This document shows positions 702 to 7,136 of a stretch of 7,136 nucleotides of DNA, piece after piece. The stretch is from positions 1 through 7,136 of the forward strand of contig JAHQXC010000067.1 in the NCBI GenBank assembly GCA_029856525.1. The letters run 5' to 3'. The notes under the pieces are model-generated. The model saw only the letters and a program-made list of their open reading frames with translations. It had not been told where the DNA came from and ran no database searches. Both the position numbers and the translations under genes were made by a program. The stretch is from Candidatus Odinarchaeia archaeon. Its GTDB lineage: Archaea; Asgardarchaeota; Odinarchaeia; Odinarchaeales; Odinarchaeaceae. The stretch's first letter is position 1, and the number at the start of each line of letters is the position of its first letter.

Positions 702-1313
702 CTGGTTGAAATCGCAGTAATCGACTATGGTTTAGGTAACCTGAGAAGCATATTCAACGCACTTAAAAAATCCGGCGCTGAGCCTATTATAACAAATGAG
801 AGTAGCCTGATAAAGAAAGCCGCCGCTATAATTTTACCAGGAGTTGGGGCTTTCAAAGACGCGATGATTAATATAAAAAATATTGAGAATCTATTAGTAG
901 AGGAAGTGTTAAACAGTAAGCCTGTCTTAGGGATCTGCCTTGGCCTCCAGTTAATGTTAACTGAAAGCATGGAGGGCGGGTTGAACAAGGGCTTGAATAT
1001 TTTTAAAGGTAAAGTTATCCGTCTACCTGAAACAGTGAAAACACCTCACATAGGCTGGAATACAATAAGACTTATAGATTCAGAGAACCCTATCGTAGAA
1101 GGCATAGAAGATAACAGTTACTTTTATTTCGTACACTCATATTACGCTACAGGATTGGATGCAAAGATTTTAATAGCTGAAACAGAGTATGGTATAAGAT
1201 TCCCATCTATTATAGGTATGAAAAACATTTTTGCAACTCAATTCCACCCTGAAAAATCAGGTGAAAACGGTTTAAAACTGATTAGCAACTTTATTAAATA
1301 TGTTAAAGGCTGA
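702..1313 (+). CDS. hisH: Imidazole glycerol phosphate synthase, glutamine amidotransferase subunit (203 aa, apparent CTG start)
   Basis: The frame of the 864 ORF extends upstream through (L)VEIAVIDYGLGNLRSIFNAL...ILPGVGAFKDAM, the conserved HisH N-terminus. The catalytic GICLG and FHPEKSG motifs are present. An in-frame TGA lies at 693-695, RBS AGGAGTGA at 688-695, and CTG at 702. Confidence 0.96.
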   Translation: MVEIAVIDYGLGNLRSIFNALKKSGAEPIITNESSLIKKAAAIILPGVGAFKDAMINIKNIENLLVEEVLNSKPVLGICLGLQLMLTESMEGGLNKGLNIFKGKVIRLPETVKTPHIGWNTIRLIDSENPIVEGIEDNSYFYFVHSYYATGLDAKILIAETEYGIRFPSIIGMKNIFATQFHPEKSGENGLKLISNFIKYVKG

Positions 1314-2042: not shown

Positions 2043-3194
2043 TTGATAGAGAGAGATGAAATATTAAAAATAGTAGGCGAGTATGATAAAAATAATCTGA
2101 AAATAGGCTGCCTCGGTTCACATTCAGCCCTCGATATAGCAGACGGTGCTAAAGACGAAGGGTTTACAACATATGTCTGGTGTCAGAAAGGCAGGGATGC
2201 GCCTTACACGCGTTTTTTTAAATCAGTCTACTATAATAATAGGTTAGTCAAAGGATGCGTTGACCACCCTATACTATTAGATTCATTTAAAGATGTTCTT
2301 AAATATGATAAAATGATTCGCGAGAACAGTATTCTATGGATTCCGAACAGATCCTTTGTAACTTATTGTGGAATAGAAAACGTGGAAAATAATTTTAAAG
2401 TACCATATGTAGGAAGTAGAAACCTTTTAAGATTAGAGGAGAGAGAGGAAAGGCAAAATTATTATTGGCTGTGTGAAAAAGCAGGTCTGCCTATACCTAG
2501 AAAAATGGAACCCGATCAAATAGACCGGCTTACAATAGTTAAACTACACCACGCTAAAATGAAGCTTGAAAGAGGATTCTTCACGTGCGCGAGTTCGAAG
2601 GAATTCGAAGAAAAGTCTAAAGCGCTTATAAAACAAGGCGTGATAACCGAATCAGATCTTGAAAAAGCACGGATAGAAGAATATATAATAGGCCCGGTCT
2701 TCAACTTCAACTTCTTCTATTCACCTGTATCAGAGAAAATAGGCGAGGAGCCTTTGGAACTACTCGGCATAGATTGGAGGTTCGAATCCTCCTTAGACGG
2801 TTTTGTAAGGATACCAGCCGAACAGCAGCTCACACTCCCTGAATCTCAAAAATATCCGATAATGACAGTGGTAGGTCATAACAGCTGTTCACTGCGGGAA
2901 AGTATTTTAAATAATATATTTCCAATAGCTGAAAAATTTGTTAAAATAACAAAGGAATACTATAAACCTGGTATGATAGGATCCTTCTGCCTGCAAACAG
3001 TGATTACAAGCGAGATGAAACCTGTGATATATGATATCGCTACGAGAACAGGCGGTGGCACAAACGCTCATATGTGGCTGGGCGCACCTTACGGTAACAT
3101 AGTATGGCGTTCTAGAATGTCATCCGGTCGGCGTGTAGCATTAGAGATTAAAAGAGCTGTAGAGCATGATCTTCTCGAGTACATTGTCACCTGA
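2043..3194 (+). CDS. purP: PurP-family ATP-grasp protein (FAICAR synthetase-like, formate/ATP-dependent); probably the PurP-like paralog
   Basis: LGSHSALDIADGAKDEGF, ERGFF, RIEEYIIG, RFESSLDG, GSFCLQ, GGGTN and GRRVALEIK match the archaeal PurP family. TTG start with RBS AGGAGGGG at 2027-2034. Family assignment is strong; the exact activity is uncertain. Confidence 0.88.
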   Translation: MIERDEILKIVGEYDKNNLKIGCLGSHSALDIADGAKDEGFTTYVWCQKGRDAPYTRFFKSVYYNNRLVKGCVDHPILLDSFKDVLKYDKMIRENSILWIPNRSFVTYCGIENVENNFKVPYVGSRNLLRLEEREERQNYYWLCEKAGLPIPRKMEPDQIDRLTIVKLHHAKMKLERGFFTCASSKEFEEKSKALIKQGVITESDLEKARIEEYIIGPVFNFNFFYSPVSEKIGEEPLELLGIDWRFESSLDGFVRIPAEQQLTLPESQKYPIMTVVGHNSCSLRESILNNIFPIAEKFVKITKEYYKPGMIGSFCLQTVITSEMKPVIYDIATRTGGGTNAHMWLGAPYGNIVWRSRMSSGRRVALEIKRAVEHDLLEYIVT

Positions 3195-3206: not shown

Positions 3207-4019
3207 TTGCTAGCTAAACGTATAATCCCCTGCCTTGATATGAAAGACGGGAAAGTTGTAAAAGGAGTCCAGTTTACTAACTTAAAGGAGGCGGGGGATC
3301 CTCCTAGCCTAGCGGAAATATACGATAACCAGGGGGCTGATGAAATAGTTTTTCTAGATGTCACAGCGTCACATGAGAAAAGGGATATTCTAATAGACGT
3401 GGTTAGAAGAACAGCGGATAGAATATTCATTCCATTCACGGTCGGGGGTGGTTTAAACTCTGTTAAATCAATCGGTGAAATTCTCAGAGCCGGCGCTGAC
3501 AAGGTTTCAATCAACACAGCTGCGATTAAAAATCCAGATCTGGTGAGAGAAGCGGCTGAAAAATTCGGAAGTCAGTGTATAGTTGTAGCTATCGATGCTA
3601 AAAGAGTCTACGTAGAGAGTATCGATGATCACAGCGACCATATATACGTCCAGACTCCTAACGGGATATGCTGGTGGGAGGCTTATATATACGGTGGTAG
3701 ACAGCCAACCGGAGTCGACGCATTGAAATGGGCTAAAAGAGTTGAAGAGCTGGGGGCTGGAGAAATATTGTTAACAAGCATGGATTGCGACGGCGTCCAG
3801 CAAGGCTATGACATAGAGCTTACAAGAGCCGCTTCCAGGCTTTTAAAAATTCCTGTAATAGCTTCAGGCGGAGCTGGTAAACCAGAGCATATATTAGAAG
3901 TCTTCACTAAAGGTAAAGCGGACGCAGCTTTAGCAGCCTCTATATTCCATTATAACCAGTATACTGTAAAAGATATAAAAAATTTTCTCGCAGCTAACGG
4001 CGTAGTAGTCCGACTTTGA
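3207..4019 (+). CDS. hisF: Imidazole glycerol phosphate synthase cyclase subunit
   Basis: [50 protein letters not shown] and ALAASIFH motifs; TTG start; RBS AGGTGG at 3196-3201. Confidence 0.98.
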
Positions 4020-4027
4020 ATCTTTAT

Positions 4028-4435
4028 AAACTTCACCGCGGGAAGACTATCTGTTTTAAGCTTTGGAAAATTGCGTTTTCCGTCATTATTATTCACGTCG
4101 TCAATTACTTTTTAATTAAATCGGAGCACAGCTACATGGAAAAATCTAAATACCGGTCTCGCATCCCTCTAGCTATTGTAAACGAGGTATTAGCATCAAA
4201 GCAATGCTGGGGATGCAATTCAACGAAAACAGCTGTTAGAAAGAGTATATTCAAGTGTAGAGACTGTGCATTAGAATACAATCGAGATCTAACCGGCAGC
4301 GTGAATATAGGTAGCAGATCCTCGGCTATACGCTGAAGTGTAGAGCTGATTTGAACAGCCTCAAATCCCCTCAGTATACTTGTTAACTGCTCAATATGTG
4401 AGGGCGAACCCCGTCTTTAGAAACGGGTGGTTCCC
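4028..4435 (+). mobile_element. Decayed non-autonomous IS200/IS605-family remnant (tnpB 3' end plus right-end hairpin); boundaries approximate
   Basis: Contains a TnpB C-terminal fragment, followed by GAGCTGATTTGAACAGCC and the hairpin GAACCCCGTCTTTAGAAACGGGTGGTTC (4406-4433), which resembles IS605/IS1341-group right ends. It sits in an otherwise tightly packed operon. Confidence 0.75.
4136..4336 (+). pseudogene. tnpB: tnpB C-terminal fragment (zinc ribbon plus RuvC-III)
   Basis: IPLAIVNEVLASKQCWGC...FKCRDCALEYNRDLTGSVNIGSR aligns with the TnpB pattern GIPV..V.P..TS..C..C...F.C..CG...DRD.NAA.NI. RuvC-I, RuvC-II and the REC/WED regions are not recognisable. The first ~40 aa of the 4016 ORF are not TnpB-like. 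Confidence 0.8.
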
Positions 4436-4980: not shown

Positions 4981-5931
4981 TTGCAAGAAAATATAACAGT
5001 GCAAGATAATAAGAGTAAAGAGGACTTACAGTATATAAGCAAGTTTTCAGAGTATTTAAAGAGAGGAGCGACCTCAAAAGTCCTCTATCTTGTAAAAGAA
5101 TTATTAACTCACATAACTCAAGTATGCGTCGAATGTGAAAGCGATAGAATAAGATGCATGCTCAGACCGATGTGCGGTAAAAGCAGACCATACTTATCTA
5201 TAAGATTAGAGTTAGGTTATAGAATCGAGGAGCTCCCTCAATTCTGTTTACAGCAGCATCTGAACTATTTCCGCAATTTTTTGAAGGGTAAAGTTAAAGG
5301 AAGCGTGTTTAAAGACGTTAAAATCACCATAAGCCAGCTGTTAATGTTACTAGACGATATAAAACCTTTATCTATTTATATACCGCCGATAGATCAGAGT
5401 GAAGAAATTTTCAAAATTATTTTAAACATCGTGAAAAAGATTATCCCAGAAGCGGAGATCTATCATGGGAATATACATAGTTATATCAGTGTTTTCGGAT
5501 CGCTTATTCACATAGACTTGAAAAGCGGAATGGTTAATCTTAACCCTTCAGATGAACCTTTAACTTCACCTGACGAGTTGAAAACACTTGTAGAAATTTA
5601 CTCGAAAATATATAATATTAAAGTTGAAATAATAGAGGAAATGTACGGGTTCTGGTACCTCGACTTTTTCGTTAAAAAACTTGAACCAGGGAAAGCTTTA
5701 GAGAAAGAGGAAATGGATACGCTAAGAGTTTTTAGAAAAAAACTAGAAGAGTACTCTAACTATGCAACCTTCTCCATAATTGAAGACGAACTTCACTGCA
5801 TAGTGGATATTCCTACACCCGGTAAAAACGATGTGAGTAGAATGCTGACACCCGGAGTAATACACGCCTTCTTCAAAATAATCGCAGATTATACAAGAAT
5901 TTCCAAAGAAGAATCAGGTGAAAATAACTGA
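4981..5931 (+). CDS. Hypothetical protein, 316 aa, with N-terminal Cys cluster (possible metal binding)
   Basis: Long ORF with TTG start and RBS AGGAG at 4969-4973; an in-frame stop lies at 4945-4947. Contains C-x2-C-x6-C-x5-C-x23-C. I recognise no family. Confidence 0.85.
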   Translation: MQENITVQDNKSKEDLQYISKFSEYLKRGATSKVLYLVKELLTHITQVCVECESDRIRCMLRPMCGKSRPYLSIRLELGYRIEELPQFCLQQHLNYFRNFLKGKVKGSVFKDVKITISQLLMLLDDIKPLSIYIPPIDQSEEIFKIILNIVKKIIPEAEIYHGNIHSYISVFGSLIHIDLKSGMVNLNPSDEPLTSPDELKTLVEIYSKIYNIKVEIIEEMYGFWYLDFFVKKLEPGKALEKEEMDTLRVFRKKLEEYSNYATFSIIEDELHCIVDIPTPGKNDVSRMLTPGVIHAFFKIIADYTRISKEESGENN

Positions 5932-5974: not shown

Positions 5975-5998
5975 AAAAAATATTTATAAATAATTTTT
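5975..5998 (+). promoter_or_regulatory. Putative BRE/TATA promoter for the 6031 gene, within a palindrome
   Basis: AAAAAA followed by TTTATAAA (5983-5990), about 40 nt before ATG 6031; RBS GGTG at 6020-6023. Confidence 0.5.
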
Positions 5999-6030: not shown

Positions 6031-7136
6031 ATGGCTTTAGAAAAGGAGACTCTTTCTAAACTACTAGTTGATACATTGAACTTATCTGAACTTGAAGCTA
6101 AGGTATATTCCACTCTCCTCCTTTTAGGCCAGTTAACTGTAAGCGAGATAGCTGTGTATTCTGAATTGGATATAACTCAAATACAAAAGATTCTTGATAA
6201 GTTAATTGGAAACACTCTCGTCAAAGAAATACCTGGGATAATTCCACGCTACCAAGCTAACCCCCCTTATAAGCCTCTAATGGTTTACCTTGAAAAATTT
6301 AATGAGATAATTAAGGAAACTGATGCGAGTATCTCAGATTCTATTAAAAAATCTCTTAAAGAATATAAAAATCAATTAGCTGCCTGGAAGGCGAAAATAA
6401 ATCAGGCTGTTGATAAAGAAGTAAGCACGGTCACCTCTTCACTATCTAATTTTACCGGTGAGGCGACCGTTACTCTAACGGAAAGTTTAGAGAATATTAA
6501 AGCCACACTGGATGAGAGAGTGAGTAAAGTCTTCTCTGAAGCAGATTCACTAGTCTCTAGTATTATAGAAGATTTACTTCAAAAATTAAATCAGAATTTA
6601 ATCCAAATACAAGAAGATATCAATACACAGAAGACTAAGCTTTTAAAATTAATAGAGGAAAACAGTGAATCTATTAAAAATCAGAGCACCCTACTAAAAA
6701 GCAAACACATTGAAGTTCTAAAAGAATCTAAACAAAATTTCATCAACGCTATAAATAAAAATTATTCAGCGATCAAAGAATTACTGAAAGATCAATTAGA
6801 AGCTTTGACAAAAATTCTAGAAGATTTGAGAACAGCAACCGCTGATAATCTCGTAAACACCGTTAACTCTATAAGCGGGTTATTAGATGAAGCTGGCTCG
6901 AGAATAAAAACTTCTCTCACATCTTTCAAAGAGCAAGCTTCAAGTCAACTATTAAAATTTAATGAAGATTTTAACAGTGTATTAGATGAATCTGAGAAAA
7001 TACTAGCCGACTCCATACATTCAGCTAGCCAAGATATTACTTTAACAATTGAAACAATAAAATCTGATATAAAACAAACGCTAGAATCATTAAACACGTA
7101 TATTTTAAATTCTCTAAATGAACTTTCAAATAATAA
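6031..7136 (+). CDS. TrmB-type winged-helix protein with long hendecad coiled coil (3'-partial, at least 368 aa)
   Basis: Open from ATG 6031 to the window edge. LNLSELEAKVYSTLLLLGQLTVSEIA...LVKEIPGIIPRYQANPP matches the TrmB N-terminal wHTH pattern (LS.YEAKVY..LL..G..T.SEIA...Y.A.PP). The remainder is helical and amphipathic. Confidence 0.88.
   Translation, partial: MALEKETLSKLLVDTLNLSELEAKVYSTLLLLGQLTVSEIAVYSELDITQIQKILDKLIGNTLVKEIPGIIPRYQANPPYKPLMVYLEKFNEIIKETDASISDSIKKSLKEYKNQLAAWKAKINQAVDKEVSTVTSSLSNFTGEATVTLTESLENIKATLDERVSKVFSEADSLVSSIIEDLLQKLNQNLIQIQEDINTQKTKLLKLIEENSESIKNQSTLLKSKHIEVLKESKQNFINAINKNYSAIKELLKDQLEALTKILEDLRTATADNLVNTVNSISGLLDEAGSRIKTSLTSFKEQASSQLLKFNEDFNSVLDESEKILADSIHSASQDITLTIETIKSDIKQTLESLNTYILNSLNELSNN
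6277..7134 (+). repeat. 26 consecutive 11-aa (33-bp) degenerate protein repeats
   Basis: Residues 83-368 divide exactly into 26 x 11 with mostly hydrophobic residues at positions 1, 5 and 8, e.g. LTESLENIKAT / LDERVSKVFSE ... ITLTIETIKSD / IKQTLESLNTY / ILNSLNELSNN. Confidence 0.8.

Follow-up and report, generated by a model that had tools for sequence, protein, structure and literature searches.

A TrmB-family protein of Asgard archaea with a winged helix and a PLD-like domain at the ends of an ~800-residue hendecad helix

The rod gene and its two contigs

The window analysed here, that is the whole stretch of 7,136 nucleotides (nt) from a Candidatus Odinarchaeia archaeon, corresponds to an entire contig (JAHQXC010000067.1; C121 of genome G000) of a 1.32 Mb assembly that is 93% complete. 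The last open reading frame (ORF) of the window, located on the forward strand, encodes the beginning of a protein in which a TrmB-type winged helix-turn-helix (wHTH) domain is followed by a very long helix made of 11-residue repeats (hendecads), hereafter named the rod. We refer to the protein as the rod protein and to its gene as the rod gene. The ORF has no stop codon ahead of the contig end. Because it is open at its 3' end and the window is the whole contig, an ORF list that does not admit open ends misses it. The parts of the gene are located as follows.

5983..5992, forward strand: TATA-like box TTTATAAATA, 39 nt upstream of the rod-gene ATG; a GGTG lies 7 nt before the ATG
6031..7134, forward strand: 5' part of the rod gene, codons 1-368 of 1028, the contig ending inside the gene
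6031..6276, forward strand: TrmB-type wHTH (aa 1-82), with the recognition helix at about aa 46-58
6277..7134, forward strand: the first 26 of ~70 hendecads (aa 83-368), with a hydrophobic core at positions a, d, e and h
Contig C117 of the same genome (G000:C117, L002:5306-7267), minus strand: 3' part of the rod gene, 654 codons; about 6 codons are lost in the assembly gap

As judged from their sequence and spacing, the TATA-like box and the GGTG are the probable promoter and ribosome-binding site of the rod gene itself.

To find the rest of the gene, the genome was scanned in its six reading frames for 11/3 periodicity. One other outstanding ORF was identified, made of 654 codons on the minus strand and open at the end of contig C117. 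It encodes ~480 further hendecad-type residues and a globular C-terminal domain of ~150 aa. An intact 1028-aa gene is found in two congener genomes, one of them closed and the other made of six contigs, and the C121 and C117 pieces align to it without gaps, at residues 1-368 and 376-1028, respectively. In addition, the gene order of the congeners (his operon, 316/329-aa ORF, rod gene, FAD-linked oxidase, CCG/4Fe-4S protein) is that obtained when the end of C121 is joined to the end of C117. The gene thus pieced together encodes 1028 aa and ends with a PLD-like domain whose best fold matches are TrmBL2 and TrmB, as described below.

The hendecad rod and the two end domains

Set out in lines of 11, the rod residues of the window fill 26 lines. 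With Ala counted as hydrophobic, position 1 is hydrophobic in 24 of these lines, position 5 in 22 and position 8 in 18. Residues 83-368 contain three glycines and no proline. The hydrophobicity spectrum of this region displays a single dominant peak at 3.66-3.67 residues, with a normalised power of 39-45, as compared to 0.1-0.9 at 3.5 residues; the maximum power reached over all periods in 2000 shuffles was 11.9. For the full rods, the power rises to 86-88 at 3.67 and does not exceed 1 at 3.5. In both complete orthologs, the 11/3 phase stays within about ±40° from residue 83 to residue ~856, on a scale where a slip of one residue corresponds to 98°. This makes ~70 consecutive hendecads in one register, which is unusually long to our knowledge. 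A short stretch of 3.5-residue character (residues ~859-886) then leads into the C-terminal domain.

Large hydrophobic residues occupy 69% of a, 46% of d, 56% of e, 69% of h and 30% of k positions, and the remaining hendecad positions are polar (Ser, Thr, Asn and Gln, ~40%) or charged. The rod is a classical a/d/e/h hendecad seam. It is acidic, with a net charge of -26 to -37, and only one proline, P440, which is conserved, occurs in its ~775 residues. At 0.15 nm per residue, and if straight and unfolded, the hendecad part would be ~116 nm long and the whole helix (residues 83-886) ~120 nm. The preliminary description of this DNA, made from the window alone, had claimed that a TrmB-like winged helix leads into a very long hendecad helix which continues past the window, with a rod of at least 43 nm and a periodicity of 3.67 residues rather than that of a heptad. 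The 26 in-register, proline-free hendecads, the Fourier spectrum, the ~775-800 rod residues (~115-120 nm if straight) and the Pfam match of the N-terminal domain (E 5e-13, see below) all bear this out.

No tandem repeat was found in the DNA of the rod coding sequence, and residue identity at lags of 11, 22 and 33 showed no excess beyond position-specific composition. Therefore, the periodicity is structural and old, and does not result from a recent repeat expansion. The four Odin orthologs are all 1028 aa long and are 50-64% identical to each other, with zero indels. Identity in the rod is 0.51 (0.62 in the core, 0.45 at the surface) versus 0.78-0.81 in the end domains. From these alignments, the length and the register of the rod appear to be under much stronger constraint than its sequence. 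The Odin rod differs in length by 190 residues from that of the sister order, and this difference could not be placed along the rod, the rods being too diverged and the profile alignments unstable. Matches within the rod to NCBIfam SpiroCoCo, ZorA and TrlF and to Pfam Muted, Baculo_PEP_C and ApoLp-III were all below cut-off and were treated as artefacts of periodicity or composition.

At the N-terminus, residues 15-79 match the Pfam TrmB family (PF01978) with an E-value of 5e-13 and 49.1 bits for a cut-off of 25.6 (51.5 bits in the whole-genome family scan), and the best sequence match in the PDB is TrmBL2 (5bpd, E 1.3e-3, aa 4-97). The conserved structural positions of the wHTH are Y26, L30, G33, T36, L58, G69, R73, Y74 and P79. 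In the HMMER alignment to TrmBL2, Gln52 and Lys53 of the rod protein are opposite Tyr50 and Asp51, two residues named as DNA contacts in the TrmB literature (PMC4158304). The column equivalent to Tyr50 is aromatic in none of 79 N-terminal domains of the family. Across the same 79 members, the exposed positions of the recognition helix are mostly Asp, Glu or Lys, the net charge of this helix is zero or negative in 84% (median -1), and the median charge of the whole wHTH is -1. Hence, judging from these residues, the reading of a TrmB-type operator by the rod protein is unlikely. DNA binding, if any, may be non-canonical, through the wing or the backbone, or the winged helix may now be a protein-binding module.

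Two short TrmB ORFs of 251 and 275 aa are present in the same genome (G000:C44:7719-7919, minus strand, and G000:C37:4557-4757, plus strand). Used as a same-genome control, they read VPESKVYD and VPRPNVYR at the contact site, with the Tyr kept, and they are the likelier candidates for genuine DNA binders of the TrmBL2/TrmB type in this genome.

The C-terminal domain alone gave no match in Pfam or NCBIfam, and a sequence search against the PDB returned noise only. An AlphaFold2 (AF2) model was built from an alignment of 45 sequences. The C-terminal 150 aa were modelled with confidence as an alpha/beta PLD-like domain (predicted local distance difference test, pLDDT, 91.7). The top Foldseek matches of this model are the TrmBL2 structures 5bpd, 5bpi and 5box (E 8e-10 to 1e-8), followed by the TrmB effector domain 2f5t (E 1.6e-8, root mean square deviation 2.9 Å over 139 columns), full-length TrmB 3qph and catalytic PLD-fold proteins. 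At the sequence level, the top match of the C-domain profile in the PDB is TrmB 3qph, residues 86-200, which cover the end of the pairing helix and the PLD-like subdomain (E 0.07). In the 45-sequence alignment, the columns W, R, P, R-D, E-E and A-P are invariant or nearly so; the catalytic HKD motif HxK(x)4D is absent, with no conserved His or Lys.

Two short members of the family have marginal matches to Pfam Regulator_TrmB, restricted to profile positions 2-136. The Odin rod protein has no Regulator_TrmB match and lacks the sugar-binding subdomain (profile positions ~137-233), its chain ending ~140 aa after the helix. With a chain that stops at the PLD-like subdomain and has no counterpart of the sugar-binding subdomain of TrmB, the protein is not a sugar-sensing repressor, in agreement with the preliminary description. 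On the basis of the C-domain model, the rod protein has the domain order of TrmBL2, i.e. winged helix, helix and non-catalytic PLD-like domain, without a sugar-binding subdomain. Its NCBIfam scores are 22.8 bits for TrmBL2 (NF041141; cut-off 530) and 21.3 bits for TrmB (cut-off 600). Given this equivalog score, its size and the residue found at Tyr50, the rod protein is therefore a TrmB-family member according to Pfam, and not a TrmBL2 ortholog.

Distribution of the family and neighbouring genes

A word-indexed homolog search with the 368-aa fragment, made at near lengths, returned no homologs, the length window and the low-complexity rod having defeated the search. An exhaustive HMMER search with the C-terminal domain recovered 215 representatives in 1.8 billion proteins. 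In nearly all of them the domain is at the C-terminus, in proteins of 340-1907 aa. For the representatives having both end domains, the invariant post-wing Pro and the conserved Trp of the C-domain are separated by 236-1701 residues. Almost all spectra of the family peak at 3.65-3.69, with powers up to 148. Homologs are found in Asgard archaea, where the family is present in 37 of the 41 genomes sampled, often with 2-5 members each (open frames of 460-2092 aa).

A motif-seeded scan, carried out on one genome per prokaryotic species with a single peptide pattern and therefore not exhaustive, confirmed 45 loci. All but one are in metagenome-assembled genomes (MAGs) that either have an Asgard label or are archaeal and unnamed, and the groups represented are Odin, Hod, Hermod, Hel, Thor, Heimdall, Wukong, Sigyn, Borr, Sif and Promethearchaeota. 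The sole outlier, L044 (DATKTP010000090.1), is on a 13-kb contig of a MAG labelled as a bacterium, Candidatus Deferrimicrobium sp. This contig has no nucleotide similarity to Helarchaeota loci of similar protein score, and it may be a misbinned Asgard contig.

A paralog was observed in the Odin genome itself (G000:C21, L020:4438-5841, minus strand), with an open frame of 468 aa and an extra N-terminal domain of ~130 aa. Its TrmB wHTH (E 2.8e-9) is followed by a ~110-aa helix and by a PLD-like domain that matches the C-domain of the rod protein (E 3e-11), and its recognition helix has a Leu in place of the contact Tyr. A description of the family was sought in the full-text literature and none was found, in a coverage that is incomplete and leaves most subscription journals outside. 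The finding is real and robust, and the rod proteins are, as far as this literature goes, an undescribed, Asgard-wide variant of the known TrmB family.

The other genes of the window are located as follows.

Start of the window to the rod gene: his operon, with hisB, hisH, hisA, a PurP-like gene, hisF, a TnpB-type fragment and hisI; then the 316-aa ORF, with the rod ORF last
4981..5931, forward strand: conserved upstream neighbour, a 316-aa protein without a Pfam or ESM Atlas match

The gene of the 316-aa protein is on the same strand as the rod gene, 99 nt upstream, and directly adjoins it in every Odin genome as well as in the sister order. The protein contains an invariant cluster of four cysteines, C-x2-C-x6-C-x5-C (C49, C52, C59 and C65), as well as an invariant IEE.YGFWYL motif. 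No usable match was obtained in the ESM Atlas, and a hidden Markov model of the protein detected no copy beside the rod genes at two more distant Asgard loci. This Cys-rich neighbour is a candidate partner of the rod protein.

Several features of the surrounding genes were also observed. Between hisF and hisI, a 106-aa ORF (4016-4336, forward strand) matches the Cas12f1-like/TnpB TNB zinc-ribbon domain (PF07282, E 5e-8) and looks, by this match, like a remnant of an IS200/605-type TnpB within the his operon; judging from ORF spacing, the congeners have no more than a short spacer here. Between hisA and hisF, a PurP-type gene (2043-3194, forward strand; DUF1246 and DUF1297, E 1e-39 and 3e-72) is present, and this arrangement is kept in both congener genomes. 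The hisH-like ORF (864-1313, forward strand) is 149 aa long from its first ATG, as compared to 168-175 aa for the congener ORFs at the same place, a difference that an alternative start further upstream or a frameshift near 700-864 may explain. Downstream of the rod gene, a GlcD-like FAD-linked oxidase of 462 aa (L002:3812-5197, minus strand) and a GlcF-like CCG/4Fe-4S protein of 391 aa (L002:2635-3807, minus strand) form a pair that is kept in congeners and is probably a lactate/glycolate oxidase operon unrelated to the rod gene.

Pairing of the chains, possible roles and known relatives

In TrmB, as reported in PMC4158304 after Krug et al. 2013, the pairing helices contact each other through Phe81/Ile91' and Phe84/Leu88'; they thus cross in antiparallel orientation, and the DNA-binding domains are domain-swapped. 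In the rod, the a/d/e/h set maps onto itself under reversal (a to h, d to e). Moreover, the middle of the rod is special. The most conserved interior window of five hendecads in the Odin orthologs is aa 457-511, centred at 484, the centre of the helix being at 484.5. At 0.70-0.77, its identity matches that of the winged helix, and the chance that such a window falls at most one hendecad from the centre is roughly 5%, according to a post hoc estimate. In the sister order (836-838 aa), a conserved interior plateau spans residues ~287-473 and is centred near the rod midpoint, ~390. Across the family, a register jump larger than 80° occurs within ±3% of the midpoint in 12 of 52 proteins, as compared to ~6.6% at other positions. 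Finally, in three divergent members (P0053, P0061 and P0011), 20-30 residues that are rich in Pro, Gly and Lys and evidently not helical are inserted at a rod fraction of 0.49-0.51. Such a break is self-complementary only at the dyad of two antiparallel chains or where a hairpin turns, which disfavours a parallel dimer. Overall, the evidence leans towards antiparallel pairing. For the Odin protein, an extended antiparallel dimer is preferred over a folded-back chain since the centre is an unbroken, in-phase helix.

The explanation that we favour, with moderate confidence, is that the rod protein is a TrmB/TrmBL2 derivative acting as a fixed-length antiparallel strut or tether with heads at both ends. 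In place of the usual ~30-residue pairing helix of the family, it has a single helix of ~800 residues carrying an a/d/e/h seam. Two chains, or a multiple of two, would associate through this seam as an almost straight coiled coil, most likely in antiparallel orientation as reported for P. furiosus TrmB. At each end of the ~115 nm rod, one winged helix and one PLD-like domain would then form a head, the conserved rod centre would be a candidate docking site and the 316-aa neighbour a candidate partner. A role as a fixed-length strut, ruler or tether, and not as an effector-sensing repressor, is suggested because the length of the rod is constant in the genus while its sequence drifts.

Several observations weigh against this explanation. 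The wing is basic (+2), with conserved Arg73-Tyr74, which leaves room for DNA binding. The register of the Odin rod is unbroken at the centre, and the mirror autocorrelation of this rod, calculated for core hydrophobicity and for conservation, gave nothing above permutation nulls. The midpoint enrichment across the family is modest and the compared proteins are related to one another; prolines show no significant excess around the middle of the rod (17 observed, 12.9 expected). The distance from Pro79 to the C-domain Trp is not constant modulo 11 across the family, all residue classes being represented. The full-length AF2 monomer, obtained from a gapless alignment of five rows, is mostly helical with a pLDDT of 49.5 and a predicted template modelling score (pTM) of 0.22; its geometry is uninformative and it was not used for fold searches. 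Lastly, the oligomer, its orientation and its length in nm are inferred, and any function entirely so.

The special midpoint could also be explained if each chain folded back on itself as a hairpin, as in SMC or Rad50. The rod would then be ~58 nm long, with a TrmBL2-like head formed by the two ends of one chain and the conserved centre at the tip. The island at aa 457-511, the plateau of the sister order, and the register jumps and Pro/Gly linkers of other members would fit this arrangement, and growth of a hairpin would keep the ancestral contacts within the head. However, the Odin centre contains neither Pro nor Gly and the hendecad phase runs through it. The sole rod proline, P440, is at a fraction of 0.46, giving arms unequal by ~60 residues. 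Moreover, the two halves show no mirror correlation in hydrophobicity or conservation, and AF2 produced no confident hairpin, its model being of low confidence. We regard this arrangement as possible, though doubtful. A parallel dimer, which we consider unlikely, would place two winged helices at one end on DNA and let the PLD-like domains oligomerise at the other, the protein being a DNA bridge, a nucleoid organiser or a filament former. Among characterised proteins its nearest relative is TrmBL2, which is indeed a chromatin protein (PMC4158304, PMC8707338), and the wHTH fold is retained together with its positive wing and Arg73-Tyr74. However, this arrangement gives no reason for a special midpoint, and the reported pairing of TrmB helices is antiparallel (PMC4158304). 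The DNA bridging or chromosome organising put forward in the preliminary description is further weakened, as it assumes that the wHTH binds DNA: the Tyr50 column holds Gln in the rod protein and is non-aromatic in all 79 N-terminal domains, the charge of the recognition helix is zero or negative in 84% of them, with a median of -1 as for the whole wHTH, and the rod itself carries -26 to -37.

Two further explanations were considered. The rod protein could be an ordinary TrmB-type transcription regulator, its long helix acting as a passive linker or a sensor, as its Pfam TrmB domain and its position between the his genes and the FAD oxidase/CCG redox genes might suggest. This is very improbable given that the effector (sugar) subdomain is missing, that the DNA-reading Tyr is lost and that length is kept to the residue over ~800 rod residues. 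In addition, the family spans the Asgard archaea, with several paralogs per genome and rods that reach ~1700 residues, and two canonical short TrmB ORFs are already present in the genome. Least probable of all, the 11-residue repeats could be amphipathic 3-11 helices lying on a lipid or membrane surface, like those of apolipoproteins, perilipins, synucleins or LEA proteins, instead of a coiled coil. Pfam Apolipoprotein A1/A4/E (PF01442) matches both pieces of the gene product (E 1.7e-11 and 5e-16), and one family member scores above the cut-off (93.2 versus 90 bits). However, both pieces are below this gathering cut-off (44.6 and 59.4 bits), proline-punctuated 22-mers are absent, and hydrophobic residues at 3-4 of 11 positions make a narrow coiled-coil seam and not a half-cylinder lipid face. 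The similarity to apolipoproteins arises because of the shared 11-residue periodicity.

Returning to the antiparallel strut, we propose, as a tentative and more speculative extension, that the family provides Asgard-specific rulers or struts of fixed length, ~35-250 nm, built from a transcription-factor scaffold. The winged helix would dock proteins, as many eukaryotic winged helices do, and the antiparallel rod would space two cellular structures such as the nucleoid, the membrane or the cytoskeleton. Among known prokaryotes, Asgard archaea are the nearest relatives of eukaryotes, and the architecture of their cells is under active study; if true, the proposal would add a previously unrecognised cytoskeletal or architectural element in these organisms. 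The family occurs in ~90% of the sampled Asgard genomes, often in several copies, and was found almost nowhere else. The length of the rod is fixed within a lineage and ranges from ~240 to ~1700 residues between lineages, suggesting rulers or tethers at the scale of the cell (100-250 nm for a cell diameter of ~500 nm). The rod would rank among the longest uninterrupted hendecad coiled coils and would be a natural test case for the mechanics of straight or right-handed coiled coils. Moreover, the loss of the DNA-reading Tyr calls for caution in annotating rod genes as transcription regulators, or in assigning them a chromatin role by homology to TrmBL2.

The closest known system is TrmBL2 of Thermococcales (TK0471 / PF0496; PDB 5bpd, 5bpi, 5box and 5bqt), an abundant chromatin protein that binds DNA non-specifically (PMC4158304, PMC8707338). 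The rod protein resembles it in domain order, in the sequence match of the N-terminal domain and in the fold of the C-terminal domain, with a sequence identity of only 11-18% between the C-domains. However, TrmBL2 is a 264-aa protein with a connecting helix of ~30 residues, as compared to 1028 aa and ~800 residues for the rod protein, and it keeps Tyr50-Asp51 where the rod protein has Gln-Lys. As to whether the architecture belongs to a characterised family, the domain order is therefore that of TrmBL2, whereas the characterised members have no such rod. TrmB of Pyrococcus furiosus and Thermococcus litoralis (3qph, 2f5t) shares the wHTH, the amphipathic pairing helix and the PLD-like N-subdomain of the effector domain, but has a sugar-binding subdomain (G320/E326), a short heptad-like helix and the conserved Tyr50. 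Beyond the TrmB family, the hendecad coiled coils of the tetrabrachion stalk of Staphylothermus marinus and of the peripheral stalks of rotary ATPases (PMC3293630, PMC6131620) have the same periodicity of 3.67, an a/d/e/h-type core and a role as spacers, although they are not fused to TrmB domains. Finally, in SMC and Rad50-type proteins, end domains are also set apart or brought together by very long coiled coils of conserved length with a special midpoint. The rod protein differs from them in having neither an ATPase head nor a hinge domain, and in being built on hendecads instead of heptads with breaks.

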